Positions 5,508 to 57,706 of a stretch of 64,000 nucleotides of DNA are shown here, piece after piece. Location: contig CBDCAU010000008.1 in the NCBI GenBank assembly GCA_965214115.1, forward strand, positions 156,347 through 220,346, read 5' to 3'. Source of the stretch: Owenweeksia sp. Its GTDB lineage: Bacteria > Bacteroidota > Bacteroidia > Flavobacteriales > Schleiferiaceae. The stretch's first letter is position 1, and every line of letters starts with the position of its first letter. Made by a program: the position numbers and the translations under genes. The notes beneath the pieces are model-generated. The model saw only the letters and a list, made by a program, of their open reading frames with translations, had not been told where the DNA came from and made no database searches.

Positions 5508-6974
5508 ATGAAAATCCTCCTCACCGGCGCCAACGGCTATATCGGGATGCGGCTCCTCCCAGTGCTCGTGGAGGCCGGCCACGACGTTGTATGCTGCGTC
5601 CGCTCGCAATCACGTTTTCCCGTCAAAAAATCATTGAAAGAGAAAGTCGAGGTTTTTGAAATCGACTTCCTGAAACCGGAGGAAGCCGAAAACCCGCCCA
5701 CCGATTTCGATGCCGCCTTTTATCTGATGCACTCGATGAGCGGCGGCGGCAATTTTGAAGAAAAGGAACAGAAAATGGCCGAAAATTTTGTCGGGTTTTT
5801 AGACAAAACTTCGTGCAGACAATTGGTGTATTTGAGTGGGATTGTCAATACCGACGAGCTTTCACAGCATCTTCGCTCGCGTTTAAAAACCGAAGAGATC
5901 CTCAAAAAAGCAAAGGCGAAACACACCGTTCTCCGCGCGGGAATCATCGTGGGAAGTGGAAGTGCAAGTTTTGAAATCATCCGCGATTTGGTGGAAAAAC
6001 TGCCGGTGATGATTACGCCGAAATGGCTCAATACCCAATGCCAGCCCATCGCCATTCGCAACGTTTTGCATTATCTGCGCGACGTTCTCGGCCACGAAAA
6101 ATGCCTCGATAAAATCTTCGACATCGGCGGGCCAGATGTTTTGACTTACAAAGAAATGCTCCTCCAATTTGCCGAGGTGCGCGGTTTCAAACGCTACATT
6201 TTCACCCTGCCGGTGATGACGCCGCGCCTCTCCAGCTACTGGTTGTTTTTCGTCACCAGCACCAGCTATCGGTTGGCGGTAAACCTCGTGAACAGTATGA
6301 AGGTGGACGTGGTGGCTGAGAAAACCGAAATCTTGGACATCCTCCCGATGGAATTGTTTTCTTATAAAAAAGCGGTGGAATTGGCCTTCCAAAAAATTGA
6401 GCAGAACGCGGTGGTCAGTTCGTGGAAAGACGCGATGAGCGGTAGCAAACTGGGCAGCTTGAGCGAGTTTGTGGAAGTGCCGCAGAACGGTGTTTTTATC
6501 GATAAAAAATCCCGCAAAATCAAAAATGATAAGGAGCAGGTCATTGAAAATATTTTCTCCATCGGCGGGCAGCGTGGCTGGTATTACGGCAGTTTTTTGT
6601 GGAAAATCCGAGGCTTTCTTGACCAAATGGTGGGCGGGCCGGGCCTGCGGCGGGGGCGCACCCACGGCTCGCACATTTTCGTGGGCGATTCGCTGGATTT
6701 TTGGCGCGTCATCGTGGCCGACCGCGAAGAGCCTCGCCTTTTGCTCTACGCCGAAATGCGCCTGCCGGGCGAGGCGTGGCTGGAATTCTGCATCGATGAA
6801 AGCGGCGAAACCCCTATCCTAAAACAGAAAGCGGTATTCCGACCGCGCGGCATTTTAGGGCGATTGTACTGGTGGTCGGTGCTGCCGTTCCATTATTTCG
6901 TTTTCAATGGAATGATTACGAATATCAAGAAATTTCGGCCGGAACGGGCTGGCCGGAGCGTTGCCCACGGTTGA
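5508..6974 (+). CDS. Atypical SDR oxidoreductase with DUF2867 (YbjT-like)
   Basis: TGANGYIG Rossmann motif, GSGSASFE, C-terminal EMRLPGEAWLEF. The stop codon lies inside a REP. Confidence 0.9.
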   Translation: MKILLTGANGYIGMRLLPVLVEAGHDVVCCVRSQSRFPVKKSLKEKVEVFEIDFLKPEEAENPPTDFDAAFYLMHSMSGGGNFEEKEQKMAENFVGFLDKTSCRQLVYLSGIVNTDELSQHLRSRLKTEEILKKAKAKHTVLRAGIIVGSGSASFEIIRDLVEKLPVMITPKWLNTQCQPIAIRNVLHYLRDVLGHEKCLDKIFDIGGPDVLTYKEMLLQFAEVRGFKRYIFTLPVMTPRLSSYWLFFVTSTSYRLAVNLVNSMKVDVVAEKTEILDILPMELFSYKKAVELAFQKIEQNAVVSSWKDAMSGSKLGSLSEFVEVPQNGVFIDKKSRKIKNDKEQVIENIFSIGGQRGWYYGSFLWKIRGFLDQMVGGPGLRRGRTHGSHIFVGDSLDFWRVIVADREEPRLLLYAEMRLPGEAWLEFCIDESGETPILKQKAVFRPRGILGRLYWWSVLPFHYFVFNGMITNIKKFRPERAGRSVAHG

Positions 6975-7078
6975 AACCGTGGGTTGTGGCGGGGTTTTCT
7001 GACCGATGGTTTTTAGTGTCGCCCACGGTTGAACCGTGGTTTGAGACCAGCACCCCAACCGACGGTTTCAACCGTTGG
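6964..7078. repeat. REP cluster (CCCACGGTTGAAACCGTGGG family), 3 units
   Basis: Palindromes at 6964-6983, 7022-7039 and 7055-7078; same family at 9581-9648. Confidence 0.85.
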
Positions 7079-7196
7079 CTCTTTAAAGGCCAAAACCCAA
7101 ACAGACATTAAAAAATAAAAAAATTAAGGTTTATAAAATTTCCATTCTTTTTTTTGAGGTCTGAAATCCATCAAACATCAAAAAATCCGATTTTTA

Positions 7197-8326
7197 ATGT
7201 CTGTAGAATTCTATCAAATAAACTCCGACCGGAACACGCCGTGGAATGATTTGCCGCCCTTGCCCATCAGGGACGAACTTTATCGAACTGTTGAAATCAT
7301 TGAAAAACTGGGGGCGCCAAAGCGGCTTTGGCCCGCTTGCAGGGGCGCAGCGCGGTGATTCCCAACCAAGGTTTGCTGATCAACACCATCAGCCTGCAAG
7401 AGGGGAAAACCTCCAGCGAAATCGAGAATATCTTTACCACGGACGATGAGCTTTACAAAGCGTTCAGCGACAAAAAAACCGAAGCTACGGGCGCTCCCAA
7501 AGAGGTGTTGCGCTACCGCGAAGCCCTTTGGTCGGGGTTTCATTATTTGGAGGAGAAGGGCACGTTTGACCCCCGTTATTTTGTGCGTGTATTTCAAGAA
7601 GTAAAGCAGACGAAGGACGGCATCCGGCCGGTTTTTTCTAAAACCACCATCAAGCAGGGCGGCACGAGGCCCAATACCGGCCAAGTGGTTTACACCCCGC
7701 CGAAAGGCCCAAAATTGATAGAAGAAAAATTAGAAAACCTGACCGCTTTTTTAAACGATGATGAGCAATTCAACATTGACCCTTTGCTGAAAATGGCGAT
7801 GGCGCATTATCAGTTTGAAGCCATCCATCCCTTTCGCGATGGTAACGGGCGGACGGGCAGGATTTTCAATATCAATTACCTCACGCACAAAAATTTGATA
7901 GACGTTCCCATCCTTTTTTTGAGTAAATATATCCTCGATTTTAAGAATGATTATTATGCAGGATTGCGCGGCATTTCGCAAACGGGAAATTGGAAAGAAT
8001 GGCTACTTTTTATGATGCGGGCGGTGGAGAATACGTCCAACCTTACGTTTCAAAAAATCAACGATATCGTTTCGGCCAAAGATGCCATTTTGGAATATAT
8101 CAAAAATGACAAACGTAAATTCAAAAATCCCGAGCCTTTGATAGAAGCACTTTTTACCCAGCCTTTTACCAAAGTCAAACACTTGGTAGAAGCGGGGATG
8201 TATGCCGAGAATACCGCTCGCGATTATCTGAACCAATTGTGCGAAATGAGCATCCTTGAAAAAAAGGAAATGGAAGGGCATAATTATTATTTGAACCTCG
8301 AACTTTACCGGATTTTATCGGAATAA
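7197..8326 (+). pseudogene. Fic-domain protein (Fic_N + Fic + wHTH) with a 1-nt frameshift near 7310-7314
   Basis: Canonical HPFRDGNGRTGR motif. The N-terminus MSVEFYQINSDRNTPWNDLPPLP is in another frame and joins at a G5 run. Confidence 0.8.
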
Positions 8327-8623
8327 AGGAAGACGCTGCCAATCTTAATAAAAAACGGTAAACCCACTCATTGCGCATTTTCAGATATTCTTGCAGAAAG
8401 ATGGCTGTTTTTTCAGAATTGCAACACGCCATTGGCGTAGTGAACATAGAGCTGACCGCTCCTCTCAGTTTTACCCGAAATATGGGTTGCGTTGAAGCGC
8501 AGGGGGCGGGGGGAAATTTATTATTCCACAGCGCTAAAGCGACTGTGCAATTCTGTAATGCGCAACGAGTTAAACCCCACTATATTTACGCCCCTCAAAG
8601 CTAAATTCTAAACACAATTCCCA

Positions 8624-9580: not shown

Positions 9581-9648
9581 AGATGCCGCAACCCACGGTC
9601 GAAACCGTGGGTTGCGGCATCTCCCGACCGACGGTTTCAACCGTCGGC
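9581..9648. repeat. REP doublet and probable bidirectional terminator
   Basis: 18-bp perfect stem AGATGCCGCAACCCACGG/CCGTGGGTTGCGGCATCT plus a second palindrome, between convergent genes. Confidence 0.85.
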
Positions 9649-14444: not shown

Positions 14445-15143
14445 ATGAAGCGGCCTTTTTTCGTTCGAGATGTGGTGGATTTAGTGTATCCCGATGCTTG
14501 CGCGGGCTGCAGCAGCCCGTTGGTGGGAAAGGAAGAGTGGATTTGCCTGGACTGCCTGCACGACTTGCCCACCACGGATTTTCACAAAATGCAGGAAAAT
14601 CCTGTCTTGCAAATTTTTGCAGGGCGCGCGAAAATCGAAAAGGCGGCGGCCTATTTTTATTTTGAGAAAGGCGGCACGGTGCAGCGGCTAATGCATCATT
14701 TCAAATATGAAAACCAACCCGAAATCGGGACGCTGCTGGGGCAGTTGGCGGGGAAAGAATTGTTGAAAAGCGACTTTTTGGATGGGGTGGATTGTCTTGT
14801 CCCCATCCCGCTGCACCCGAAAAAGCTGAAACAGCGCGGCTTCAACCAAAGCCTCGTTTTGGCGCAAGCCATTTCGGATAGGACACGGATTCCCGTGCAT
14901 TTTGGCCATTTGACGCGCGATGTTTTCACGGAAACCCAGACGCGGAAATCGCGCTTTGCACGGTGGAAAAACGTGGAGAAAGTGTTCACCATCCAAAATT
15001 CCGCGAAGCTGGACGGCCAGCACGTTTTGCTGATTGATGACGTGATAACCACCGGTTCCACGGCCGAAGGTGCCGCGATTCAAATTCTGGGTTTGAAGAA
15101 TACCAAGGTTTCTTTTTTTGCTTTGGCGAAAGCCTCCAAATAA
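14445..15143 (+). CDS. comF: ComF family phosphoribosyltransferase-like protein
   Basis: CAGC..ICLDC zinc finger, PIPLH, RGFNQS, LLIDDVITTGST. Confidence 0.92.
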   Translation: MKRPFFVRDVVDLVYPDACAGCSSPLVGKEEWICLDCLHDLPTTDFHKMQENPVLQIFAGRAKIEKAAAYFYFEKGGTVQRLMHHFKYENQPEIGTLLGQLAGKELLKSDFLDGVDCLVPIPLHPKKLKQRGFNQSLVLAQAISDRTRIPVHFGHLTRDVFTETQTRKSRFARWKNVEKVFTIQNSAKLDGQHVLLIDDVITTGSTAEGAAIQILGLKNTKVSFFALAKASK

Positions 15144-19060: not shown

Positions 19061-19471
19061 CTAATGATGAAATAATACCCTACCTAGGGGCCCTCCCTGA
19101 TAATTACACACCCAACTATATTGAACTGGGTCATTAGAGCAACTTTCACAAACTAACGCAGAACTATTGCTAGGCTGATTTGGAGTGCAAACACAACCAC
19201 CTTGGATTACCTTCCCAAAATTTTTCGGACATTCCACGTATTTAAATTTCACACTATTAAAAAATTCTCCAGAAGGTGCTGTTGGGGCAATGTTTTGGCC
19301 TGGAGCCAAAGTATAACTGAGAGTTCTTGAATATTCGCAACTTCCATCTACAAGTGAAAAAACAATATCCAATGCACACGTTGTTTGATTTTGAACCAAC
19401 ACTTGAGATTGGGCGTTTGCAAACTGTAGTCCAATAGCGGAGATTAAAAGTAAGAATATTTTATTTTTCAT
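19061..19471 (-). CDS. Small secreted Cys-rich hypothetical protein
   Basis: Signal peptide ending ANA-Q; 8 Cys; AT-rich DNA. Confidence 0.7.
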   Translation of the reverse strand: MKNKIFLLLISAIGLQFANAQSQVLVQNQTTCALDIVFSLVDGSCEYSRTLSYTLAPGQNIAPTAPSGEFFNSVKFKYVECPKNFGKVIQGGCVCTPNQPSNSSALVCESCSNDPVQYSWVCNYQGGPLGRVLFHH

Positions 19472-24130: not shown

Positions 24131-24408
24131 GGGCGTTCTTGATTTTTGCGAAGACCGATGGCCGTTACCAAGTCTTTTTCTTCTTGAATTTTATATGTAA
24201 TACAATATCCTCGGAATGTCATATCTCGAATGTTTTCGTCATTGTAATAGCGGGATTTTCGATAGCGGAAAGGCATAAAATTCAAAGTGTGAATTTCGTC
24301 AATCACATCATTGAAAAATTTCCGCGACGCTTCTGGTTTGTCCCTTGCAATAAAATCTACTGTTTTTTGCAATATTTTGTCAAATCTTTTCGAAGTTCTA
24401 ACCTTCAT
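24127..24408 (-). CDS. RelE/ParE family toxin
   Basis: MKVRTSKRF..DFIARDKPEAS..MPFRYRKS..IRDMTFRGYCITY; 93 aa; start overlaps the upstream gene. Confidence 0.85.
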   Translation of the reverse strand: MKVRTSKRFDKILQKTVDFIARDKPEASRKFFNDVIDEIHTLNFMPFRYRKSRYYNDENIRDMTFRGYCITYKIQEEKDLVTAIGLRKNQERP

Positions 24409-24721: not shown

Positions 24722-24773
24722 TTTTTAATTTTATAATAGCTCAATATGACGATAAATATTCAATAAAATGTCA

Positions 24774-38101: not shown

Positions 38102-38139
38102 CTCAATGAAACCAACGATTAATAATGAGATTTTGAATT

Positions 38140-38732: not shown

Positions 38733-38780
38733 TTTTTTGAGAATTGAAAAGCGAATTTCGGAAATTTTGAGGAGAACCTT

Positions 38781-40223: not shown

Positions 40224-40326
40224 TGGAATAAACGCAAGATGTTAGACACAAGACGCAAGTTTGGAGGGTCGGCATGATTGGCATGGAGTCATTGGCCCAT
40301 TGTCCCATTGACTAATTGTCTCATTA

Positions 40327-41115
40327 TTAAAGATTCCCCAGCCTTCCCCCATCCACCGGCAGATTAATCCCATTAATGTACCCCGCCGCCGGACTGCACA
40401 AAAACGCAATCGCATTGGCAATTTCTTCCGGCTTCGCAAAGCGCTTCAGCGGCACTTCCGCCGTCATTTTTTTCTCCACCGCTTTTTCAGGCGTCCCCGT
40501 TTTTTTCGCCTTGTTTTCGATGATGGAACTGAGCCGCCCCGTCTCCGTCGCGCCCGGCAGCACGTTGTTCACGGTGATGCCGAATTCGCCCAGTTCATTG
40601 GACAAAGTCTTGCTCCAATTGGCCACCGCGCCACGAATCGTGTTGCTCACGCCGAGGTTGGGCAGCGGTGCTTTCACGCTGGTGCTGATTACGTTTACGA
40701 TGCGGCCGTACTTTGATTTTTGCATCCCCGGCAATAACAGTTTTACCAATAATTGATTGCACAACAAATGCTGCCGAAACGCATCCACAAATTCTTCCAA
40801 ATCTGCTTTATGCGCCGGGCCAGCAGGTGGGCCGCCCGTATTATTAATTAGAATATTAAAATCGTTGCCATTATTCAGACAACCCGAAACCACACTCTCC
40901 AATGAAACAGGATCATTAAAATCCGCCACCAAAAATTGGTGTTTTTGATTATGGCTGGTGCTGAGGTTTTTCTGCACTTTTTCCAGCTTTTCCGCATTCC
41001 GCGCCAGCAAGGTAATTTCCGCGCCCATCCGCGCCAGTTCTTCGGCGGCGGCCTTTCCGATGCCGTCAGAACTTCCGCATACGAGGGCTTTTTTATTGGT
41101 GAGATTTAAGTCCAT
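40327..41115 (-). CDS. SDR family oxidoreductase
   Basis: CGSSDGIG, NNTGGPP, SNTIR, NNVLPG, VDGG. Confidence 0.9.
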   Translation of the reverse strand: MDLNLTNKKALVCGSSDGIGKAAAEELARMGAEITLLARNAEKLEKVQKNLSTSHNQKHQFLVADFNDPVSLESVVSGCLNNGNDFNILINNTGGPPAGPAHKADLEEFVDAFRQHLLCNQLLVKLLLPGMQKSKYGRIVNVISTSVKAPLPNLGVSNTIRGAVANWSKTLSNELGEFGITVNNVLPGATETGRLSSIIENKAKKTGTPEKAVEKKMTAEVPLKRFAKPEEIANAIAFLCSPAAGYINGINLPVDGGRLGNL

Positions 41116-41195
41116 AGAAGAGTGTAATTTGTAATTGGGTAATTTATTGTAATTGGTAATTCAGTTGTAATTCGATAGTAATTCATTGTAATTTT

Positions 41196-41352
41196 CCTCC
41201 CCCGGCTCGTGCCTCGCCACCCCCTCAAAGAGGGGGATAGGGGCCGCCACCCCGAACCACGGAACGACTAAACTGGCGGTCTTCCAAAAAGTTGGAGCGT
41301 GCGCTGTCCCCCTCTTTGAGGGGGTGTCTCGGCTCAGCCGAGACGGGGGAGG
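41196..41352. repeat. REP doublet / MITE-like element (CCTCCCCCGG...CCCCTCAAAGAGGGGG family)
   Basis: Terminal inverted repeats flanked by degenerate octamer tracts. Confidence 0.75.
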
Positions 41353-41422
41353 TTTTCACTATTCCCCTAATTAACTAATTGTCCGATTGTCTCATTGGCA
41401 AATTGCCTAATTGTCCCATTGA

Positions 41423-42130
41423 CTAATTGTCCAATTGCCCCATTGTCTCATTCATTTTATCACTCTCCACCATCCCGTCCCGCAGCCGGATCACCCGCTT
41501 GGCGTGCAGCGCGATTTCCTCTTCGTGCGTCACCAAAATCACCGTGTTGCCGTTGCGATGGATTTCTTCAAACAAATTCATTATTTCGATGGAGGTTTTG
41601 CTATCCAAATTCCCCGTTGGTTCATCCGCCAAAATGATGGAGGGATTGTTCACCAGCGCCCGCGCCACGGCCACGCGCTGCCTTTGCCCGCCGCTGAGTT
41701 GGTTCGGCCGATGGTCCATCCGGTCGCCCAGCCCCACGGATTCCAAAACTTCCTCCGCGCGTTTTTTCCGAGCGGAACTGGACATCCCCGCGTAAACCAA
41801 AGGCAGCGTAACATTCTCCAAAGCGGTGCTGCGCGGCAATAAATTAAAAGTTTGGAAGACAAACCCAATCTCGCGGTTGCGGATTTCAGCCAGCTCATTG
41901 TCAGACAGTTGGCTTACGTCCTGTTCGTTCAGAATATACTCGCCGGAAGTGGGCGTGTCCAGACAGCCAATCAAATTCATCAAGGTAGATTTCCCGCTCC
42001 CGCTCGGCCCCATCAAAGCGACGTACTCGTTCCGCTTGATGTCCAAGTCAATGCTTTTCAGCACTTTAACGACTTGATTTCCAAGGGGAAAATTGCGGAT
42101 GATTTGGCGGAGACGGATGATTTCGTTCAT
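41423..42130 (-). CDS. ABC transporter ATP-binding protein (LolD/MacB-like)
   Basis: [27 protein letters not shown]. Confidence 0.95.
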
Positions 42131-42245: not shown

Positions 42246-42410
42246 ATTGTCCCATTGTCCCATTGTCCCATTGTCCCATTGTCCCATTGTCCCATTGTCC
42301 CATTGTCCCATTGTCCCATTGTCCCATTGTCCCATTGTCCCATTGTCCCATTGTCCCATTGTCCCATTGTCCCATTGTCCCATTGTCCCATTGTCCCATT
42401 GTCCCATTGT
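42246..42410. repeat. Octamer microsatellite (ATTGTCCC)x20
   Basis: Perfect tandem copies at 42246-42405 plus a partial unit; degenerate relatives at about 40291-40325 and 41369-41453. Confidence 0.95.
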
Positions 42411-42418
42411 CAAATTGA

Positions 42419-45061: not shown

Positions 45062-45148
45062 AGATTTTTTGTTTGACTACGAGAGCATCCGTTTTGTGGA
45101 AAGCGGGTGCTTTTTTTATTCGATTATTTTTACAAAAATTTTTACAAA

Positions 45149-45562
45149 ATGAGCAAAGCTCCCAAGCCCGTCGGCAGTTATCCCTTAGCCCGAAAAGCGG
45201 GTAACCTTTTGTTTTTGAGTGGCGTAGGGCCGCGCATCGCCGGCAGCGACGAGAACGACAGCGGCGTACCAGAACTGGAACTCGACCACAATGGCAATTT
45301 CAAATCCTTCGATTTTGGCGCGCAAGTCCGCTCCGTTTTTCAGAATGTGAAAAATATTCTCGAAGAACACGGCTCTTCGTGGGAAAAACTGGTGGACATC
45401 CAAGTTTTTTTGGTGAATATGAAACGGGATTTCCGCGAATTCAATCAAATCTACGCGGAGCTTTTCGCGGATTGCGACCCGAAACCTTGCCGGACGACCA
45501 TTGAAATCGGGAGTCTGCCTACGCCGATTGCGGTTGAATTGAAATGTGTGGCGGAGGTTTGA
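45149..45562 (+). CDS. RidA family protein (probable 2-aminomuconate deaminase)
   Basis: PVGSYP, LFLSGVGP, PCRTT, PIAVELK; start moved to ATG 45149. Confidence 0.85.
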   Translation: MSKAPKPVGSYPLARKAGNLLFLSGVGPRIAGSDENDSGVPELELDHNGNFKSFDFGAQVRSVFQNVKNILEEHGSSWEKLVDIQVFLVNMKRDFREFNQIYAELFADCDPKPCRTTIEIGSLPTPIAVELKCVAEV

Positions 45563-45718
45563 GGAGGGTAATTCGGTAGAAACTCTTGTGCAATTTTAAA
45601 TGGACGTGTGCCAAAATTTAAGGTAGTCCTGATACTTCGGTTTGAATGTTAATATCTTGGTTTGAAAATGTTTAGCGTAAATTCGCGTCCCATATTTAAA
45701 AAGTGTATTTTTAACACA

Positions 45719-45940
45719 ATGAATGTTTATCTCGAAAAAAAGCTAAAAGAATTGGGCATCGATGATATCCTTGACTACGATTACAAATCACACCGCCAAG
45801 CCACTCGCGAAAATTTGGTAAGTGCCAAAGTGCGCGGCAACGTTAGGATGCAGCAGAAAAAAGTGCTGACCGAAAAGGAGTTCTTGGCCAAGAAAGAATC
45901 CATTTTAGCTTCCAGCCGGTTGCTCCGCGCTAAAATTTAA
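45719..45940 (+). CDS. Small basic hypothetical protein (73 aa)
   Basis: MNVYLEKKLKELG...VRGNVRMQQKKVLTEKEF; lies 15 nt before the next gene. Confidence 0.6.
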   Translation: MNVYLEKKLKELGIDDILDYDYKSHRQATRENLVSAKVRGNVRMQQKKVLTEKEFLAKKESILASSRLLRAKI

Positions 45941-45955
45941 CCTAAATCTTCTTAT

Positions 45956-46614
45956 GTGCCTTCCTCCAAAGAGCAGATTTTTTTAGAAGGTTTTCAAAAC
46001 CTGCTTCCCCTCTATTTGAAGGTCAAAGAAAGGATTGCCTTGGCCGAAGAAATCTCCGGTGATGTTTATTTAGGTGCCATCAATGAAATGCGCAACGCGC
46101 TCGACCATCTGATGCGGGCCTATGAACGGCAGGAAAGCGGCATTGTCAAGGAACTGGAAGAATGCAAGGAACATTTGATAAGGGCGGCTTTTGACTCTTT
46201 TGACTTGGTGGCAATGGAACTATTGGAAAACAATGAAAGAAAATTCCAAGGTTTCAAAATAGAACTGATCGCCAAAATCTATCCTGATTATTTCAAGGAA
46301 TTTATTCCAAAACTGAATCAAATGCTTGAGGCCAAAGCGGCGGTAAGGGCTAAAAATACGATGACCTCATTGCCAAACCTTCCCTTACTCCTTCTGAAAA
46401 GTTTGACAAGATTTTTGAAAAATACGACCATCTGCTAACTGAAATACTCCAGCTTGACCAAGATGCTAACGGCCTTATTCCAACCCTCATAAAAGCTAAG
46501 GAGGAAGCCGAAATGCAAGCTCGAAAAAGAAAAAATTTCGATTGGATTAAAATTGCGGTTGCCGCCGTTTTGGGCGGGCTGCTCTCTTTGTTCGTCCGTT
46601 ATTTTATGATGTAA
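45956..46614 (+). pseudogene. All-helical protein with an RxxxxH (HEPN-like) motif and C-terminal TM helix; 1-nt frameshift in an A5 run
   Basis: NEMRNALDH. Adding one A at 46352-46356 gives a 219-aa ORF ending WIKIAVAAVLGGLLSLFVRYFMM*. Confidence 0.65.
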
Positions 46615-48942: not shown

Positions 48943-49036
48943 AATCCAAAATTATTATGTTTGTTTAGGAATGAAATCCAAAATTATTATGTTTATTTGG
49001 GAATGAAATCCAAAATTATTATGTTTATTTGGGAAT
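48943..49036. repeat. Three tandem 32-bp direct repeats
   Basis: AATCCAAAATTATTATGTTTRTTTRGGAATGA at 48943, 48975 and 49007 (last copy 30 bp); no spacers. Confidence 0.9.
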
Positions 49037-49079
49037 TTGAAGATGAGTTGGTATTTTTGTGAACTCATTTTACTATCAA

Positions 49080-50210
49080 ATGATACTTCGGGAACAAATT
49101 GATTTTGTCCGCCAACGGCTTTTCCGAGGCAAGGCATTCATCATTTTCGGGCCACGCCAAGCCGGAAAAACCACTTTTGCTAAGCAACTTTTGGCTACTG
49201 AAGACCGAACCGTTTTTCATCTCAATGGAGATGACAGCGATGCACGGAATCTTCTTGCCCAACCCAATGCAACAATGTTAAGGGCACTGCTGGGCAAAAA
49301 TGAGATTTTCTTTTTGGACGAAGCCCAGCGTGTGCCCGACGCGGGACTTTTGATAAAAATTATAGTTGACCAAATTCCCGAAGTTCAGGTCATTGCCACG
49401 GGCTCCTCTTCTTTTGAATTGGCCAGCCATATCAACGAGCCGCTAACGGGCCGCAAATATGAGATGCAGCTTTTGCCACTTGCCTATCAGGAATTGGTGA
49501 GTCATACCGACCTTCTAACCGAAAATAGATTGTTAGAACAGCGGCTGGTTTTTGGCGCCTATCCAGAAATAGTGATGGATCCCATCAATGCGGAAGAACA
49601 CCTTAATTTATTGGCAAACAGTTATTTATATAAAGATGTCTTTGCATTGGAACAAATTCAAAAACCCAATCTTTTGGAGAAACTGGTGAAGGCGCTCGCC
49701 TTGCAAATCGGTAGCGAGGTGAACATCAACGAATTGAGCCGATTGCTGCGTGCCGACCACAAAACCATCGAAAAATACATACAGCTTTTGGAGTTGGCGT
49801 TCGTGATTTTTCAATTGCCCGCGCTAAACCGAAATGTGCGCACCGAAATCCGCAAAAGCCGCAAAATTTATTTTTTCGACAACGGGATTGTTAACGCCGT
49901 TACCGGAAATTTGAACCCATTGCACAACCGTAAAGACGTGGGCGCGCTTTGGGAAAATTACCTGATGAGCGAGCGCTATAAATATTTGGAATTCAAAAAG
50001 ATACGCGCCAAACAACTGTTTTGGCGCACCACGCAGCAACAGGAAATCGACTACATCGAAGAGACGTTTGACACAATGCTGGCCGCCGAATTCAAATGGA
50101 ATCCGAGCCGCAAAACCAACTTTTCAAAAACTTTTTTGCGCGCTTATCCCGAAGCGGAAACGCTGGTGGTGACGCCGGAAAACCGGCACGTGTTTTTGAC
50201 CGTTTCATAG
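49080..50210 (+). CDS. AAA_14 ATPase with DUF4143
   Basis: GPRQAGKT, FLDEAQ, ATGSSS, LTGR, GAYPE, KIYFFDNG, WENYL, EIDYI..AAEFKW. Confidence 0.9.
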   Translation: MILREQIDFVRQRLFRGKAFIIFGPRQAGKTTFAKQLLATEDRTVFHLNGDDSDARNLLAQPNATMLRALLGKNEIFFLDEAQRVPDAGLLIKIIVDQIPEVQVIATGSSSFELASHINEPLTGRKYEMQLLPLAYQELVSHTDLLTENRLLEQRLVFGAYPEIVMDPINAEEHLNLLANSYLYKDVFALEQIQKPNLLEKLVKALALQIGSEVNINELSRLLRADHKTIEKYIQLLELAFVIFQLPALNRNVRTEIRKSRKIYFFDNGIVNAVTGNLNPLHNRKDVGALWENYLMSERYKYLEFKKIRAKQLFWRTTQQQEIDYIEETFDTMLAAEFKWNPSRKTNFSKTFLRAYPEAETLVVTPENRHVFLTVS

Positions 50211-50441: not shown

Positions 50442-50467
50442 CCGCCCTTTTGCAAAAAGCAAAAAAT

Positions 50468-53400
50468 ATGGCGCGCAACTATCCCGAATTCAAGCAATTA
50501 GACCTTGTGAAAATCCACAACGACATTCTGGATTTTTGGAAGGAAAACGACATTTTTGAGCAAAGCGTTTCCTCCCGCGAGGGGCGCGAAAACTTCGTGT
50601 TTTACGAAGGGCCGCCCTCGGCCAACGGGATGCCGGGCATCCACCACGTGATGGGCCGCGCCATCAAGGATATTTTTTGCCGCTACAAAACATTGGACGG
50701 TTTTCAAGTCCATCGAAAAGCGGGTTGGGACACCCACGGACTGCCCGTGGAGCTTGGCGTGGAGAAGGAATTGGGTATAACAAAAGAGGACATCGGCAGC
50801 AAAATTTCTGTAAAAGAATACAACGAGGTCTGCAAAAAAGCGGTGATGAAATACACCGACGCGTGGAACGACCTGACCGAGAAAATGGGCTATTGGGTGG
50901 ATATGGGCGACCCCTATATCACCTACAAACCCAAGTATATGGAAACGGTGTGGTGGCTTCTCAAACAACTGTGGGACAAGGACTTAATGTATAAAGGCTA
51001 TACAATTCAACCGTATTCGCCGGCCGCCGGCACGGGGCTGAGTTCCCACGAAATCAATATGCCGGGCTGCTACCGCGAGGTGAAGGATACATCAGTAATT
51101 GCGCAGTTTCCGGTGGTGCGGAATGAGAAATTTCAAAAGGTTTTTGGCGAAGCGGTTTCGGTGGAGGATGCGGTGTATTTCCTCGCTTGGACGACCACGC
51201 CTTGGACGTTGCCCAGCAACACCGCGCTGACGGTGGGGAAAAGTATTCCCTATGTTTTAGTGGAAACTTTCAATCAATATACCCATCAAAAACAGAAGGT
51301 AGTTTTAGCCAAAAATTTAGTAGCTAAATATTTCAAAAAAGAGGCGAAAAATGTTTCTTTTTCTGATTATAGAAAGGATGGAAAAAATATTCCTTGGAAG
51401 ATTGTTTGGGAAGGTTTGGGCGAGCGGCTTTTAGATTTGAAATATGAGCAACTTTTGCCGTATGCAAAACCTTACGAAAATCCCGACCAAGCGTTTCGGG
51501 TGATTGCTGGCGATTTTGTGACGACAGAAGACGGAACTGGCATTGTCCACACTGCGCCTACGTTTGGTGCGGATGACGCGAAAGTGGCGAAAGAAAATGG
51601 CGTGCCGCCGATGTTGGTTTTGGATGAAAATGGCAACGCCGTCCCGCTGGTGGATTTGCAGGGGAAATTCCGAAAGGAAATGGGTGAATTCGCTGGAAAA
51701 TTCGTGAAAAACGAATATTATTTGGAAAGCGAAAAACCGGATAAATCAGTTGATGTAGAAATCGCCATTAAATTAAAAGAAGAAAACAAAGCTTTTTTAG
51801 TCGAAAAATACAGCCACAGCTATCCCCATTGTTGGCGCACGGACAAGCCCGTATTATATTATCCGCTGGACAGTTGGTTTGTGAAAGTGACCGCCGAGCG
51901 CGAAAAGCTGGTGGCGCTGAACAAAACCATCAATTGGAAACCCGCCGCCACGGGCGAAAAACGCTTTGGCAACTGGCTGGAAAACGCCAACGACTGGAAC
52001 CTTAGCCGCAGCCGTTCTTGGGGAATCCCGCTGCCGATTTGGAGTACCGAAGACGGCACGGAACGGCAAATCTTTGGCAGCGTGGCCGAGTTGAAAAGAG
52101 CCTGCGACGACGCCGTAGAAGCGGGTTTGATGGATTCCCATCCTTTTGAAAAATTCGAGTTGGACAATCTTTCCGATGAGAATTACGACACCGTGGATTT
52201 GCACCGTCACATTGTAGATGACATCATCCTAAAATCCCCGCAAGGGAAACCGATGAAACGGGAGGCGGATTTGATTGATGTGTGGTTTGATTCGGGGAGT
52301 ATGCCGTATGCGCAGTGGCATTATCCGTTTAGCCCCCTATCCCCCAAAGGGGGGAAATTGGAGCGTGAAAGCGCGCATAATAAAACGTCCAATTCTAACG
52401 TCCGTGTAGCTGAACCCCCCTTTGGGGGGCAGGGGGGCTGGCAAGATTTAGCGAGTGTTTTCCCCGCCAACTTCATCGCCGAAGGCGTGGACCAAACCCG
52501 CGGCTGGTTCTACACGCTCCACACCATCGCTGGATTGGTTTTCGATTCGGTGGCGTATAAGAATGTGATTTCCAACGGATTGGTGCTAGACAAAAACGGC
52601 CAGAAAATGTCGAAGCGCCTCAAAAATGCGGCTGACCCATTTGAGACTTTGGACAAATACGGCGCGGACGCGGTGCGCTGGTATATGATTGCGAATGCGC
52701 AGCCGTGGGACAATCTGAAATTTGATTTCGCGGGCATCGCCGAGGTGCAGCGCAAATTTTTTGGGACGCTATATAATACGTATTCGTTTTTTGCGCTGTA
52801 CGCGAATATCGATAGGTTTGAGTGGGATTCGGCGCGGCTTTCGGAGGTGAAAAACCGGCCGGAAATCGACCGCTGGATTTTGTCGCGGCTGCAAGTTTTG
52901 AAAAAAACGGTGCGCGAAAATTTCGACAATTACGAACCGACTTGGGCGGCGCGCGCCATCCAAAATTTTGTGGATGAGGAGCTAAGTAACTGGTATGTAA
53001 GGCTTTGCCGGAAACGGTTTTGGCGCGGCGAAATGAGCGCCGACAAACGGATGGCCTACGAAACGCTTTACGAATGCCTGTTCACGGTGAGCCAATTGAT
53101 GAGTCCGGTGGCGCCGTTTTTCGCGGATTGGCTGTACCGAAACCTGACGGAACATCTGCCGGAAGGCGAAAAAGAAAGCTCGGTGCATCTGACTTTTTTG
53201 GCGCAAGCCCAAGAAAACCAAATCGATACACATCTGAACGAGCGGATGAAAATGGCGCAGCGGCTCAGTTCGATGGTGCTGTCGTTGCGGCGGAGCGAGT
53301 CCATAAAAGTGCGGCAGCCGCTGCAAAAAATGATGGTGCCGGCGCTGAAACCGGAGGTGGCCGAACTGATAAAAAGCATCGAGGACATCGTGCTGGCGGA

Positions 53401-53971
53401 GGTGAACGTGAAAGAACTGGAAATTTTGCGCGACGTGCAGGGCGTGCTGGTGAAAAAGGCGAAACCGGATTTCAAAAAACTGGGCCCGAAATACGGCAAG
53501 TTGATGAAGCCAATCGCGGGCGCGGTGAAAAATTTTGACCAAGACCAAATCGAAAAACTGGAAGAAAAAGGCGTTTTGGATTTGGAAATCGGCGGGGAGA
53601 AAATCGCGCTGGCGCTGGGCGACGTGGACATCGAAACGGAGGACATCCAAGGTTGGCTGGTGGCCACGGAGGGCGGGCTGACGGTGGCTTTGGACGTCAC
53701 GATTTCGGACGAACTGCGCTACGAGGGCATCGCCCGCGAGCTGGTGAACCGCATCCAAAACCTGCGCAAAGACAGTGGGCTGGAAGTGACCGACCGCATT
53801 TCGCTGCAGATTTTGAAAAACGACGAAATCAGCAAGGCGCTGGCGCAAAACCGCGACTACATTGCCAGTGAAACCTTGGCGAACGAAGTGATTGAAAAAG
53901 AGGAAATGATTGGTGGGTTGGAGTTGGATTTAGGGGAAGTGCAGACGGCAATTGCGTTGGAGAAAGTTTAG
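50468..53971 (+). CDS. ileS: Isoleucine--tRNA ligase, carrying an in-frame palindrome insertion
   Basis: EGPPSANG.PGIHH, GWDTHGLP, WTTTPWT, DWNLSRSR.WG, DVWFDSG, EGVDQTRGWF, KMSKR. Confidence 0.97.
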   Translation: MARNYPEFKQLDLVKIHNDILDFWKENDIFEQSVSSREGRENFVFYEGPPSANGMPGIHHVMGRAIKDIFCRYKTLDGFQVHRKAGWDTHGLPVELGVEKELGITKEDIGSKISVKEYNEVCKKAVMKYTDAWNDLTEKMGYWVDMGDPYITYKPKYMETVWWLLKQLWDKDLMYKGYTIQPYSPAAGTGLSSHEINMPGCYREVKDTSVIAQFPVVRNEKFQKVFGEAVSVEDAVYFLAWTTTPWTLPSNTALTVGKSIPYVLVETFNQYTHQKQKVVLAKNLVAKYFKKEAKNVSFSDYRKDGKNIPWKIVWEGLGERLLDLKYEQLLPYAKPYENPDQAFRVIAGDFVTTEDGTGIVHTAPTFGADDAKVAKENGVPPMLVLDENGNAVPLVDLQGKFRKEMGEFAGKFVKNEYYLESEKPDKSVDVEIAIKLKEENKAFLVEKYSHSYPHCWRTDKPVLYYPLDSWFVKVTAEREKLVALNKTINWKPAATGEKRFGNWLENANDWNLSRSRSWGIPLPIWSTEDGTERQIFGSVAELKRACDDAVEAGLMDSHPFEKFELDNLSDENYDTVDLHRHIVDDIILKSPQGKPMKREADLIDVWFDSGSMPYAQWHYPFSPLSPKGGKLERESAHNKTSNSNVRVAEPPFGGQGGWQDLASVFPANFIAEGVDQTRGWFYTLHTIAGLVFDSVAYKNVISNGLVLDKNGQKMSKRLKNAADPFETLDKYGADAVRWYMIANAQPWDNLKFDFAGIAEVQRKFFGTLYNTYSFFALYANIDRFEWDSARLSEVKNRPEIDRWILSRLQVLKKTVRENFDNYEPTWAARAIQNFVDEELSNWYVRLCRKRFWRGEMSADKRMAYETLYECLFTVSQLMSPVAPFFADWLYRNLTEHLPEGEKESSVHLTFLAQAQENQIDTHLNERMKMAQRLSSMVLSLRRSESIKVRQPLQKMMVPALKPEVAELIKSIEDIVLAEVNVKELEILRDVQGVLVKKAKPDFKKLGPKYGKLMKPIAGAVKNFDQDQIEKLEEKGVLDLEIGGEKIALALGDVDIETEDIQGWLVATEGGLTVALDVTISDELRYEGIARELVNRIQNLRKDSGLEVTDRISLQILKNDEISKALAQNRDYIASETLANEVIEKEEMIGGLELDLGEVQTAIALEKV
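52331..52439. repeat. REP-doublet insertion inside ileS
   Basis: AGCCCCCTATCCCCCAAAGGGGGG ... CCCCCCTTTGGGGGGCAGGGGGGCT imperfect terminal inverted repeats. Confidence 0.85.
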
Positions 53972-54000: not shown

Positions 54001-54669
54001 ATGAACTCGAAAAAAATCATAAAAAGAATATCCGAGCACATAGCTTTGGAAGGTTTCAAACCAGCCGTAGTTAATTATCTTTTAATGCTCGCGCGAGTCA
54101 CCGAAAATAGAAGGGATGAAATTGTTTTTCCTACAACCAAACGGACGATGGCCAGCAATTTGGTAGCCAGAATTCAATTCCCTGCTGTTGAAGAAATATA
54201 TAAATCAGCGGTTAATAAGAATGATGGAAACTATGTATCGAGTACTCTTCTAAAACAAGTCGATGCCGATTCATTTGTCAATACGTATGAGATAATTTAT
54301 ACTGAGGATGTAGATAAAGACATTCCCTATTTTAAAGAAGCAATTGATAACGGTGCCATTCCATTTTTCAACAAATACCAATCGGTTGAAGCGGTTTACG
54401 GTGAGATGAAAAATATAAATAAATCGAACTACTTAGATTATATGCAAGGATTACACAAGTTTATTGGACATCCGGTTATCGTAAGATATTTAATCATACT
54501 TGGATTGATGGGCGATGATGATTTTTATAAAGAATCCGACAGGCAGTTGAAGTTTATAGAAGAGCATGAATCTTCTAATGCTGAAATTGACTTGCAGACT
54601 CGAAATGTCAACAAAATCTTACCCACGGTAATTCAGATGACCAAAGAAAAATTTGGCTCATTGAAATGA
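54001..54669 (+). CDS. Low-GC hypothetical protein
   Basis: 222-aa ORF with AT-rich codon usage; no family recognised with confidence. Confidence 0.7.
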   Translation: MNSKKIIKRISEHIALEGFKPAVVNYLLMLARVTENRRDEIVFPTTKRTMASNLVARIQFPAVEEIYKSAVNKNDGNYVSSTLLKQVDADSFVNTYEIIYTEDVDKDIPYFKEAIDNGAIPFFNKYQSVEAVYGEMKNINKSNYLDYMQGLHKFIGHPVIVRYLIILGLMGDDDFYKESDRQLKFIEEHESSNAEIDLQTRNVNKILPTVIQMTKEKFGSLK

Positions 54670-54872: not shown

Positions 54873-54971
54873 GAAACCTTGGCGGATGAAGTGTTTGAAA
54901 AAGAGGAAGTTGGCGGCGGTTTGGAACTGGATTTTGATGCGGTAAAAGTGGCGATGGCGTGTGGAAAAGTG
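54873..54971 (+). pseudogene. Orphan diverged copy of the ileS 3' end
   Basis: ETLADEVFEKEEVGGGLELDFDAVKVAMACGKV aligns without gaps to ETLANEVIEKEEMIGGLELDLGEVQTAIALEKV (21/33 aa). Confidence 0.85.
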
Positions 54972-55097: not shown

Positions 55098-55790
55098 ATG
55101 ATAGTAAAAACAGTAGCCAATTCTACCGAAGCCGTGCGCGGCCTAAAAGACGGGATGACGCTGATGCTGGGCGGTTTCGGGCTGTGCGGCATCCCTGAAA
55201 ATTCCATCGCCGCCATCCGCGAAAACGGCGCGAAAAACCTAACCTGCATCAGCAACAACGCGGGCGTGGACGATTTTGGGTTGGGACTGCTGTTGCAGAC
55301 GCGGCAAATCAAAAAGATGATTTCCAGCTACGTGGGCGAAAATGCGCTGTTTGAAAAACAGATGCTGAGCGGCGAGCTGGAGGTGGATTTGGTGCCGCAA
55401 GGTTCGCTGGCCGAACGGTGTCGCGCGGCGGGAGCGGGCATCCCCGCGTTTTACACGCCCGCCGGCTACGGAACCGAAGTGGCGCACGGCAAGGAAGTTC
55501 GCTGGTTCAAAGGGAAACCGCACATTTTGGAACACGCTTTTGAAGCGGATTTTGCTTTCGTAAAAGCGTGGAAAGGCGACGATGCGGGCAATTTGATTTT
55601 CAAGGGCACGGCGCGGAATTTCAACCCCTTGATGGCGATGGCGGGGAAAATCACCGTGGCGGAAGTAGAGGAACTGGTGCCGGCGGGCGAGCTGGATCCG
55701 AACTTTATCCATACGCCGGGGATTTTTGTGCAGAGGATTTTTAAGGGGAAGAATTATGAAAAGAGGATTGAGCAGCGGACGACTCGGTAG
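55098..55790 (+). CDS. scoA: 3-oxoacid CoA-transferase subunit A
   Basis: [44 protein letters not shown]. Confidence 0.93.
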
Positions 55791-55857: not shown

Positions 55858-56166
55858 ATGCCTAAAATCTATGAATATCTTGGGATTTCGATTTTCTTCT
55901 TCTCCAATGAGCACGAGCCGATTCATGTGCACGGGCTGTACGGCGAATTTGAAAGCAAGGCGGAAATTTTCTGGATTGAAAAAAACGTTTTGAAAGTAGA
56001 AATTATAGAAATCTCAGGTAAAAGATCATTGAAAGGAAAAACTCTAAAAAACTTTGAGATATTCATTAATGAATATGCAGTAGAGATTATGGAAAAATGG
56101 AATCTGTATTTTAAGCAAGGAATTACTAAATTGACATTTGAAAGGATCACTAAAAAAATTCGATGA
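55858..56166 (+). CDS. DUF4160 family putative toxin, copy 1
   Basis: MPKIYEYLGISIFFFSNEHEPIHVH motif. Confidence 0.85.
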   Translation: MPKIYEYLGISIFFFSNEHEPIHVHGLYGEFESKAEIFWIEKNVLKVEIIEISGKRSLKGKTLKNFEIFINEYAVEIMEKWNLYFKQGITKLTFERITKKIR

Positions 56167-56507
56167 TGAAGGTAATTGTAGAAGTAAAATACGATGAAAA
56201 AACAGTAGATGACAACCGTAAAATCTATTCAGTTATCGATGCTCGCTACATCGGCGATTTTGCTATCCGTGTTTTCTTTTCCGATGGTCATCAAAAATTG
56301 GTGGATTTCAAGCCTTTTTTGGAGCAGGTTAAGCAGCCTCTTGCAATGCAATATTTAGAGGAAGAAAAGTTCAAAGAGTTTGAGATTGTCCACGGCAATT
56401 TGAACTGGAACGATTATGAGATGATTTTTCCCTTGGATGATTTATACAATAATTCTATCCTGAAGGAAACAAAGACAAAGGAGCGCGAAGTTTTAGAAAA
56501 TGCCTAA
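56163..56507 (+). CDS. DUF2442 family putative antitoxin, copy 1
   Basis: IRVFFSDG....VDF...L, LNWNDYEMIFPLDDLY. Confidence 0.85.
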   Translation: MMKVIVEVKYDEKTVDDNRKIYSVIDARYIGDFAIRVFFSDGHQKLVDFKPFLEQVKQPLAMQYLEEEKFKEFEIVHGNLNWNDYEMIFPLDDLYNNSILKETKTKEREVLENA

Positions 56508-56802
56508 AATTTATGAATATCTTGGGATTTCGATTTTCTTCTTTTCCCGTGAACACGAACCTATCCACGTTCACGCACGCTACGGAGAATTTCAAAGCAG
56601 GGCGGAATTTATTATCGCGGATGGCAAAGTGGTCGATATTCGAATTATTGGTGTTAAAGGTTCAGACCCTTTGGTAGGAAAAGTCTTGAAAAACTTTGAA
56701 GATTTCTTAGAAGTTTTTGCTGATGAAATGATACAAAAGTGGGTTGATTATTTTGTTTATGGCAAGAAGTTAAAGTTGAAAAGAATCACTAAAAAGCTTT
56801 GA
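56500..56802 (+). CDS. DUF4160 family putative toxin, copy 2
   Basis: MPKIYEYLGISIFFFSREHEPIHVH motif. Confidence 0.85.
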   Translation: MPKIYEYLGISIFFFSREHEPIHVHARYGEFQSRAEFIIADGKVVDIRIIGVKGSDPLVGKVLKNFEDFLEVFADEMIQKWVDYFVYGKKLKLKRITKKL

Positions 56803-56805
56803 AAA

Positions 56806-57135
56806 ATGAAGATAACCGTTGATTACAGCAATTTGAAAAAAGATAACCAAGTATATTCTGTAACCGATGCCAAGTACATCGGCGATTTTGCTATCCGTGT
56901 TTTCTTTTCCGATGGTCATCAAAAATTGGTGGATTTCAAGCCTTTTTTGGAACAGGTTACCCATCCCAGCGCCAAGCAATATTTTAATGAAGAAAAGTTT
57001 AAGGAATTTGAGATTGTGGATGGCATTTTGAATTGGAATGATTACGAAATGATTTTTCCCTTGGATGATTTATATAATAATACTATTCTGAAAGAAACGA
57101 AAACCAAGGAGCGCGAAGTTTTGGAAAATGCCTGA
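56806..57135 (+). CDS. DUF2442 family putative antitoxin, copy 2
   Basis: Same motifs as copy 1; 77-bp identical block (56247-56323 and 56875-56951). Confidence 0.85.
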   Translation: MKITVDYSNLKKDNQVYSVTDAKYIGDFAIRVFFSDGHQKLVDFKPFLEQVTHPSAKQYFNEEKFKEFEIVDGILNWNDYEMIFPLDDLYNNTILKETKTKEREVLENA

Positions 57136-57166
57136 AATTTCCAACTTTTAAAACAGAAAAACCTAA

Positions 57167-57706
57167 ATGACCAAAAGAGATTTTTTTATTTCACTTCTTA
57201 AAGTTTTTGGATTGTTTTCGGCGATAGCGGCGCTATTTTCTTCTCTGCCCTCCTACCTTTCTTTTGCCATTGCCAGTTTTGATTGGATTTCTCTCTTTTG
57301 GGTTTCGGTGGCTTCCATAGTGGTGATTGGGCTTTTTTTGCTTCTTATTTTTAAGTCAGAAAATATTGTAAGTATTTTAAAATTGGACAGCGGATTCGAT
57401 ACCGACCATATTGATTTTGGAAATTTGAAGGCGGTTGATTTAATCAAAATCGGGACTTTTGTGGTGGGAGGTTTTTTGATTTTAGATAATATCCCCACTT
57501 TTTTAGGTCACACTTTGTATGCTTTTAAAGGAGAGCAAATGGGCTTGGAATCTACTCCTCGTGATAATCTGATGTGGACGATGAGTGGGCTGAATCTCAT
57601 CATCGGATACATTTTGATTACCAACTACCATTTTGTGGCGGCCCGTTTTTACAAACACGAAAAGGGAGAAACGACCACTTCAACGAATCACGATTTAACG
57701 AGTTAA
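57167..57706 (+). CDS. Hypothetical multi-pass membrane protein
   Basis: Four hydrophobic segments. Confidence 0.7.

Follow-up and report, generated by a model that had tools for sequence, protein, structure and literature searches.

How do small accessory genes that carry no mobility gene of their own come to lie between the core genes of a chromosome, and is the stop codon of a core gene a special place for them to enter? The question is raised by a stretch of 64,000 nucleotides from Owenweeksia sp. (contig CBDCAU010000008.1), which we shall call the window. A preliminary description had noted seven groups of accessory genes, here termed islets, each docked immediately behind the stop codon of a core gene, and proposed a single recombinase-free route for all of them. 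The seven islets are real and were mostly annotated correctly, with a gene content that is largely supported by Pfam (Table 1). Two of them, located behind the genes for aldehyde dehydrogenase (ALDH) and isoleucyl-tRNA synthetase (ileS), have a feature that had gone unseen, in that the cargo is bracketed by a duplication of the 3′ end of the neighboring gene. This scar is the one informative detail in what is mostly ordinary genome geography, and on balance we think it probable that these two islets entered by homology-anchored integration via the end of the neighboring gene.

The window was examined using a six-frame map of open reading frames (ORFs) with the G+C content at third codon positions (GC3), together with Pfam, NCBIfam and PADLOC scans. 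It contains ~58 genes. The conserved genes have GC3 = 0.55-0.78, and several small genes have values of 0.27-0.5. Type IX secretion system (T9SS) sorting domains and the nearest relatives (Owenweeksia, Croceimicrobium and Schleiferiaceae metagenome-assembled genomes) indicate that the window belongs to the chromosome of an isolated Flavobacteriales lineage. Amino acid identity to the relatives is 88-90% for ScoA, up to 84% for RidA, 80% for ALDH and 74-78% for IleS, and the best metagenomic match to IleS is 75% identical. All comparisons of islets with relatives are to be read at the level of genus or family only. The window DNA is confined to a single metagenome run of low depth (k-mer depth 4-12), so that its source is a metagenome-assembled genome. 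The scans of ~58 ORFs of the window, including those of the islets, gave no recombinase, integrase or transposase domain, and the earlier statement that the islets carry no mobility gene is therefore borne out. An Rfam scan of the window matched tRNA only, and a scan for sigma-70 promoters is uninformative for Bacteroidota.

Islet 4 comprises a DUF433 and a DUF5615 gene, a predicted toxin-antitoxin (TA) pair that is co-directional with ALDH. On either side of the pair is a copy of the ALDH 3′ end, the two forming an 80-nt direct repeat in which 77 of the 80 nucleotides are identical (96%). The proximal copy corresponds to the last 27 codons of ALDH and ends NVCLKV-stop. The distal copy is a relic that reads MKNSGVGREGGFEALDFFTEKKNVCLKL-stop, ending NVCLKL. 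Both copies are complete gene tails with the stop at the same codon position (KV-stop and KL-stop), and relatives have either IKL-stop or IKV-stop. Within the repeat the copies differ by two synonymous changes and one non-synonymous change, the mismatches being C/T, G/A and T/G. The DUF5615 stop codon is 38 bp from the relic, and the relic stop codon directly abuts a predicted terminator hairpin that is common to the convergent T9SS cargo gene. DUF433 and DUF5615 have GC3 = 0.67 and 0.55 respectively, compared with 0.63 for ALDH. Because the composition of the pair is host-like and the repeats are 96% identical, it appears that the event was recent and that the donor was closely related.

Islet 6 is a single orphan gene that lies between two copies of the ileS 3′ end, a 98-nt repeat with 71% nucleotide and 58% amino acid identity. 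The proximal copy provides the last 33 codons of ileS and ends LEKV-stop, as in relatives. The relic has lost the ancestral stop and keeps an ancestral FD motif that is missing from the proximal copy. It lies ~200 bp beyond the stop codon of the orphan gene, and 127 bp before the start of scoA. The longest exact core shared by the copies is ~14 nt, and their differences are distributed 7/6/16 over the three codon positions, i.e. they are enriched at the third. This event would be old, or its donor more distant, and the codon pattern fits both. In 59 of the 66 Bacteroidota loci with sufficient downstream sequence (L081-L160), a dksA/traR-like gene begins 2-77 bp after ileS and lspA comes next, an order that is lost in the window lineage and its nearest relatives. 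We considered the possibility that the islet is a simple breakpoint in this synteny, and rejected it since the relic shows that the adjacency of ileS and scoA predates the insertion.

In a metagenome of such low depth an assembler might stitch strain variants together and so create false repeats. That is hardly credible for these two structures, as independent Logan contigs carry both of them and the copies differ in sequence. A contig of 792 nt links both ALDH copies via the TA pair, and another spans IleS, the orphan gene, the relic and ScoA. In the independent assembly the depth of the ALDH islet equals that of ALDH itself, and a 34-mer shared by the two copies is present at double depth.

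At both ALDH and ileS the homology runs out about one codon short of the stop, and the stop codons are nevertheless correctly placed. This leads us to propose that the incoming DNA brought a homologous tail. Alongside the cargo, this DNA would have carried a further copy of the target gene's final ~27-33 codons. Recombination inside that tail would join the body of the resident gene to the incoming tail and cargo, and the resident tail would be displaced to the far side. There it would persist as a relic without function, adjoining the original terminator or downstream DNA. Such an event could occur either by a Campbell-type single crossover with a circular intermediate, or through linear DNA that is joined homologously at one end and illegitimately at the other, i.e. 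homology-facilitated illegitimate recombination. In either case the recombination machinery of the host would suffice, and no dedicated recombinase would be required. A one-sided homologous join is sensible because only one flank is conserved; the DNA downstream of ileS and of ALDH varies among relatives. The insertions, the repeats, the relics and the lack of recombinase genes are directly observed, while we infer which repeat copy was the incoming one, whether RecA was needed, what form the donor DNA had and how it was taken up.

A number of observations weigh against integration of this kind. A scar is present in just two of the seven islets. No donor was found, the best DUF5615 homologue being 62% identical and lacking a recorded gene context. 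There were no circular or empty-site joints for islets 2, 3, 4, 6 and 7, which is weak evidence when taken from low-depth contigs of the sole run. The excess of third-position changes in ileS is equally expected from decay of a relic following duplication in situ. Homology-facilitated illegitimate recombination in the laboratory reportedly results in insertion with deletion as a rule, rather than duplication. Lastly, an integrase encoded outside the 64-kb window might have acted in trans.

How specific, and how common, are these scars? Using the N- and C-terminal 70 residues of ~50 window genes, only the ALDH and ileS relics were found; there were no N-terminal relics, and the five other islets have no scar. 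In a wider survey of 350 loci (5.3 Mb of related DNA with 3,494 ORFs of at least 150 aa), the terminal 130 nt of each gene was compared with the 6 kb beyond. The raw counts were eleven 3′ relics lying downstream and seven 5′ relics lying upstream, and several of both are paralogues or repeats. There are genuine 3′ cases at mscL in L125 and at a pepP-like gene in L328. Of all the scars that in L125, a marine Flavobacteriia contig, is the cleanest; there (L125:6674-11394) a 118-nt repeat of the mscL 3′ end brackets 4.5 kb containing two Porph_ging-family genes and the gene for a CarboxypepD_reg outer-membrane protein. These copies differ only in the distal ~35 nt. In the six codons that precede a shared EQNKS end every change is synonymous, and both copies have a stop of their own. 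In L328 the repeat is 171 nt and the cargo is one secreted protein. L189 presents the mirror image at a 5′ end, with a 132-nt relic of the 5′ region of an ALDH-like gene and a T9SS cargo gene in between. No recombinase domain was found in the cargo of L125, L328 or L189. The specificity for 3′ ends and for TA or defense genes that had been suggested is contradicted by these loci. Judged from the survey, the process is rare, with roughly one scar per thousand genes, affects both gene ends, and is not tied to TA or defense cargo. The window has two scars among ~40 long genes (post hoc Fisher p = 0.002), an excess that may be an effect of the lineage or of the choice of window.

Could the repeats have been generated locally? 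A short tandem duplication or a switch of template during replication might have captured unrelated DNA, giving copies that were identical at birth. The ileS copies are closer to each other (21 of 33 amino acids alike) than is either to any relative (18 of 33 at most), their codon-position pattern fits the decay of one copy, and in L326 there is a plain tandem duplication of 131-nt period at the 3′ end of RidA. The stop codons are harder to explain in this way. The proximal ALDH copy has one sense codon and then a stop at the ancestral position, though the homology ends earlier, and the proximal ileS copy has KV-stop where the relatives end. We estimate that an arbitrary insert would provide such a stop ~5% of the time in each case. 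Moreover, the synonymous-only codons and separate stops of L125 point to two functional alleles. A local accident is very unlikely to be the origin of these scars.

Direct repeats of a target 3′ end, with an incoming copy that restores the gene, are typical of the islands of tyrosine recombinases, and TA genes resist deletion. The repeats might be the attL and attR of site-specific elements that restored the gene 3′ ends and have decayed to a TA or cargo core, or of integrase-less satellites resembling cis-mobilizable elements (CIMEs) that were mobilized in trans. The scars have this appearance, being built of the target 3′ end with the gene restored, and repeat lengths of 80-118 nt are within the range of att sites. 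Yet no recombinase is present in the cargo of any of the five scar-bearing loci, and the unrelated target sequences would require two different integrase specificities. The window islets are also very compact, with 38 and ~200 bp from cargo stop to relic and no debris of a larger element, there are no excision joints in the source metagenome, and the ileS copies have no exact core longer than the ~14 nt noted above. We regard a site-specific origin as unlikely.

Homology-anchored integration could be taken a step further, by supposing that the cargo modules circulate as address-tagged cassettes. In each a borrowed 3′ end of a housekeeping gene, ~80-120 nt in length, would act as a homology address for RecA-dependent insertion, by a single crossover, behind that same gene in related genomes. 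If true, such a cassette would be a mobile element with no recombinase, whose only requirement in cis is a borrowed gene tail and which leaves the host gene unharmed. There is no donor, circle or second copy in its support, and we give it little credence.

The earlier proposal, in its full form, was that all seven islets arrived by one recombinase-free route of 3′ hitchhiking, specific to TA and defense genes and possibly driven by natural transformation. The two 3′-end duplications and the lack of mobility genes are in keeping with this, as is the presence of a ComF-like gene (14445-15143). Six of the seven gaps between host stop codon and islet are no longer than 99 bp, the values for islets 1 to 7 being 222, −4, 43, 48, 99, 29 and 68 bp. 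(The first becomes 353 bp if measured to the uncorrected ORF start of the Fic gene, the form used in the following test.) The window has 37 core-gene junctions (23 co-directional, 7 convergent, 7 divergent), of which 30 (81%) offer at least one 3′ end, and the probability of finding all seven islets at such junctions is 0.23. There is thus no enrichment over the geometric null. Furthermore, two accessory genes that had not been listed, for a secreted protein (unk136) and an AAA_14/DUF4143 ATPase, are each located between two 5′ ends; with these included seven of nine are at 3′ ends, as geometry expects. Islets 3, 5 and 7 filled ancestral spacers of 4-130 bp, so short that behind a stop is the same as before the next start, and islet 7 ends 10 bp before the start of scoB. 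Islet 2 is at an inversion breakpoint, and scars elsewhere have secreted or outer-membrane cargo and occur at 5′ ends too. The ComF-like gene is the sole competence-related gene seen in the window, and its weak match scores below the Pfam cut-offs. What survives of the recombinase-free 3′ route is the homologous tail scar of two islets; with five islets lacking a scar and no preference for 3′ ends, the proposal in its full form seems improbable.

Location behind a stop codon is consequently not a special rule, and we attribute it mainly to geometry and purifying selection. A 3′ end is available at the majority of junctions, and an insertion that disrupted a promoter or a coding sequence would be lost. 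No terminator-like hairpin was found between a host stop codon and co-directional cargo, making read-through transcription plausible. Co-directional cargo situated between the stop codon and the terminator of the host gene could be read through from that gene.

The second of the accessory genes between 5′ ends is in the divergent promoter region of the GluR channel gene and ileS. This spacer is 1669 bp in the window, compared with 137-228 bp in L270, L276, L278 and L289, 406 bp in L274 and 725 bp in L272, and the AAA_14/DUF4143 gene is absent from the spacer in all six. In the window the gene, a PADLOC defense candidate, is preceded by three tandem 32-nt repeats (48943-49036).

Are the islets conserved in the family, or are they accessory? 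Wherever comparison was possible they are absent from the nearest syntenic relatives, confirming their accessory nature, and from this synteny we conclude that at least five of the seven are lineage-specific insertions. Of 70 Bacteroidota loci, 50 have scoA and scoB no more than 260 bp apart, and the window cargo is present in none of the 70. Other inserts occupy this spacer in the remaining 20 loci, none of which has a scoA 3′ relic. They include genes of ~115 aa for a four-helix-bundle protein of the 23S_rRNA_IVP family in five separate lineages; these are AT-richer than the sco genes, and four are 54-66% identical while one is unrelated. The spacer looks like a recurrent target of this gene family. 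Two Owenweeksia genomes share the order ABC-F, ABC ATPase, SDR, ALDH ... RmuC, MarC. MarC and RmuC, which are 868 bp apart in the window, are separated by 4 bp in L161 and by 12 bp in L190. No TA pair follows ALDH in Owenweeksia, and the DUF433/DUF5615 pair is missing behind ALDH in 13 Bacteroidota loci. The order RidA-AAA16-GluR-IleS is kept in the nearest relatives, and the RidA-AAA16 spacer is 32-127 bp in nine of them, with unrelated cargo in seven others (7 of 16 loci). In many Schleiferiaceae and Cryomorphaceae RidA is 3-5 bp upstream of ileS. The scoA-scoB and RidA-AAA16 junctions and the ALDH 3′ flank have alternative cargo in different lineages.

The 3′ flank of ABC-F in the window is an inversion breakpoint, and in the Owenweeksia chromosome L190 ABC-F is followed by a homologue of ABC235. 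Relative to L190, window positions 22247-42130 show an inversion of the block that extends from the ABC ATPase to MarC. About 6 kb at the ABC-F breakpoint contains the ParE islet, tRNA-Ala, an ECF sigma factor, a TPR protein and a CHAT protease. A perfect tandem array of the 8-mer CCATTGTC, with ~21 copies, is found upstream of the ABC ATPase gene (42246-42411), and a degenerate array of the same unit is at the 3′ end of that gene (41371-41452). Both arrays are near one end of the inverted block.

The features of the window are summarized in Table 1.

Table 1. Islets, host genes, scars and other features, with positions in the window unless a locus is named
Feature	Position	Strand	Match or comment
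Host gene 1: NAD(P)-binding + DUF2867 protein ('SDR')	5508-6974	+	Pfam DUF2867 3e-33, NAD_binding_10; GC3 0.65
Islet 1: SoFic-type Fic gene, frameshifted	7197-8326	+	Fic_N/Fic/SoFic_C; NCBIfam SoFic 3e-97
unk136, 136-aa secreted protein, between two 5′ ends	19061-19471	-	GC3 0.27
Host gene 2: ABC-F ATPase	22247-24130	+	Pfam
Islet 2: toxin, putative antitoxin and antitoxin paralogue	24127-25103	-	GC3 0.34-0.42
Islet 2, ParE/RelE-family toxin	24127-24468	-	ParE_toxin 1.7e-9; convergent with ABC-F, stops overlap by 4 bp
Islet 2, putative antitoxin	24398-24721	-	small acidic protein; overlaps ParE toxin gene
Islet 2, antitoxin paralogue	24774-25103	-	the two small acidic proteins are paralogous, E 2e-4
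tRNA-Ala beyond islet 2	25222-25296		tRNA search
Host gene 3: MarC-family membrane protein	30500-31165	+	Pfam MarC 4e-43
Islet 3: 94-aa HicA-like and 127-aa possible HicB proteins	31209-31878	-	no family match; opposite to MarC and RmuC
Predicted bidirectional terminator	37986-38014		perfect 14-bp-stem hairpin between stop of T9SS cargo gene (37981) and relic ALDH stop
ALDH 3′ relic	38015-38101	-	distal repeat copy 38022-38101; tblastn E 2e-14
Islet 4: DUF433 and DUF5615 (PIN-like)	38140-38732	-	DUF433 38490-38732, Pfam 5.4e-19; DUF5615 38140-38493, Pfam 3.6e-21
ALDH proximal repeat copy	38788-38867	-	last 27 ALDH codons
Host gene 4: ALDH	38781-40223	-	Pfam Aldedh 6e-171
Host gene 5: RidA	45107-45562	+	Pfam Ribonuc_L-PSP
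Islet 5: 92-aa protein and frameshifted ~219-aa helical protein	45662-46613	+	Rx4H motif, C-terminal transmembrane helix
AAA_14/DUF4143 ATPase, between 5′ ends of GluR channel gene and ileS	49059-50210	+	PADLOC candidate PDC-S01 1e-149
Host gene 6: ileS	50450-53971	+	Pfam
ileS proximal repeat copy	53870-53967	+	last 33 ileS codons
Islet 6: 222-aa orphan gene	54001-54669	+	no family match (Pfam, NCBIfam, PADLOC); GC3 0.35
ileS 3′ relic, ancestral stop lost	54873-54970	+	98 nt, 71%; tblastn 58% aa, E 1e-8
Host gene 7: CoA-transferase subunit A (scoA)	55098-55790	+	Pfam CoA_trans 1e-75
Islet 7: tandem DUF4160-DUF2442 pairs and 179-aa membrane protein, between scoA and scoB	55859-57706	+	Pfam; pair 1 55859-56507, pair 2 56500-57135, membrane protein 57167-57706
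scoB	57717-58370	+	Pfam CoA_trans
23S_rRNA_IVP genes between scoA and scoB of relatives	L016:10798-11139, L020:6953-7312, L027:7409-7759, L034:10720-11073, L076:10781-11074

The cargo of the seven islets ranges in size from 0.6 to 1.85 kb. The islets had been described as mostly AT-richer than their hosts. GC3 is clearly below that of the host gene in islets 2, 6 and 7 (0.34-0.43 compared with 0.62-0.69) and mildly so in islets 1, 3 and 5; the DUF433/DUF5615 pair departs from this, being host-like in composition. Taken as a whole, the islets appear to be lineage-specific modules that have been inserted into the spacers between core genes. They comprise type II TA pairs, an orphan gene and, in a state of decay, a Fic gene and a two-gene module.

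Most of the gene labels given earlier are supported by Pfam, while 'HicBA' and 'HEPN-like' are unconfirmed. Adjacent co-directional pairs of small genes that overlap or are less than 30 bp apart, as expected of TA modules, are formed by ParE and its 107-aa putative antitoxin (AT107), which overlap, by the Hic pair, separated by 1 bp, by DUF433 and DUF5615, which overlap by 4 bp, and by DUF4160 and DUF2442, which overlap or are 3 bp apart. ParE, DUF433/DUF5615 and DUF4160/DUF2442 also have domains of toxin or antitoxin families, the Pfam matches of DUF4160 and DUF2442 being 1e-7 to 3e-11, and these modules are predicted to be type II TA systems. The 'HicBA' pair has no family match in Pfam, NCBIfam or PADLOC. 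The sole signal for the label is a weak match of the 94-aa protein to PDB 1whz (E 0.36), and the AF2 model of its HicB-like partner is too poor to use (pLDDT 37). The supposed DUF4160/DUF2442 array is one pair that has been duplicated in tandem, with 84-86% nucleotide identity. We considered that the 179-aa membrane protein beside it might be a remnant of a ~590-aa gene found between scoA and scoB in relatives, and rejected this as there is no similarity. The orphan gene of islet 6 has distant homologues only, with 23-35% identity, on contigs of ~1 kb.

Two of the islets have genes interrupted by frameshifts. The Fic gene is split near 7316 at a run of five G nucleotides, with its N-terminus in another frame and its true start at 7197. 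The 160-aa gene previously reported in islet 5 is a frameshifted gene of ~219 aa. Both frameshifts recur in the independent assembly. Since this has the same sequence, the Fic frameshift is likely real and the gene is probably a real pseudogene. An intact homologue of the islet 5 pair is found in one other contig (L352:5636-6714). The module consists of a protein of ~92-118 aa and a helical protein of ~220-237 aa with an Rx4H motif, RNALDH in the window, and a C-terminal transmembrane helix. It is rare, as a word-index search of 5.8 billion proteins gave that one other instance only. The protein that had been called HEPN-like has no match in Pfam, NCBIfam, PADLOC or the PDB, its AF2 model is poor (pLDDT 56), and Foldseek gave no match at E < 0.5.

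Other repeats are present in the window. A 59-nt inverted repeat with 93% identity (1862-1920 and 5418-5474) brackets the block unk2176-ALDH1-VIT1, and a repeat family of the ATCCGCGT type, 42-89 nt in length, flanks unk2176 and ALDH1 singly (2060-2132, 2850-2922 and 4513-4601). REP-like hairpins with a ACGGTTGAAACCGT core, in four to five copies, begin on the stop codon of the DUF2867 gene (6967-7075) and recur between the bestrophin and MPG glycosylase genes (9595-9644). The DUF2867 gene also has its last five codons and stop repeated 58 nt further downstream. A shared junction motif or REP element at the islet borders was rejected, as the ACGGTTGAAACCGT hairpins occur at these two places only and no other repeat is common to the islets. 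No att-like repeats were found at tRNA-Ala. Integron cassettes were rejected on the basis of an inverted-repeat check, which found no suitable inverted repeats at the cargo ends, and because there is no integrase. Diversity-generating retroelements, with their template and variable repeats, were rejected since the ALDH mismatches are not adenine-specific, there is no reverse transcriptase domain and the targets are housekeeping enzymes.

The presence of an accessory gene behind a stop codon is alone no evidence of mechanism, as gene geometry yields the pattern. The scars are of more interest. The acquisition of small accessory genes without mobility machinery is usually inferred statistically from pangenomes, and here there are two readable footprints of individual events. 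Relics of this kind are easily searched for, and could be used to measure how often recombination with one-sided homology seeds TA and orphan genes, compared with integrases and transposases.

How do these islets compare with known systems? Scattered TA modules without mobility genes are commonplace. The modules of the window are like type II TA modules in being small two-gene operons with overlapping or abutting ORFs, family domains, patchy distribution and atypical composition, although the HicAB assignment is a resemblance at the level of motif only. Elements that integrate at gene 3′ ends (islands, integrative and mobilizable elements, CIMEs and degenerate tycheposons) likewise have repeats formed of the target 3′ end, with a proximal copy that restores the gene and a distal relic. 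The window islets differ from these in having no integrase, cargo of 0.6-0.7 kb, unrelated protein genes as targets and no excised form that was seen.

Minimal mobile elements, or core-flanked genomic islets, are exchanged by homologous recombination in Neisseria (PMC3787668). They too are small cassettes that lack mobility genes and terminal repeats, lie between conserved genes and have alternative cargo at each junction. Two of the window islets, however, have long duplications of the end of the flanking gene, an outcome not expected of a double crossover in both flanks. Accessory genes are also gained inside the recombination tracts of neighboring core genes, where one edge is joined illegitimately; such gains have recently been quantified (PMC12359135), and Hulter & Wackernagel 2008 is cited there for homology-facilitated illegitimate recombination. 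That process resembles the integration proposed here for the ALDH and ileS islets, with one homologous anchor, a non-homologous join and one conserved flank. It is said to have been described in Acinetobacter and pneumococcus by de Vries & Wackernagel 2002 and Prudhomme 2002. The difference is that here 80-98 nt of recipient sequence are kept as a duplicate. The two scars are natural footprints consistent with this family of recombination mechanisms, rather than a new kind of element.

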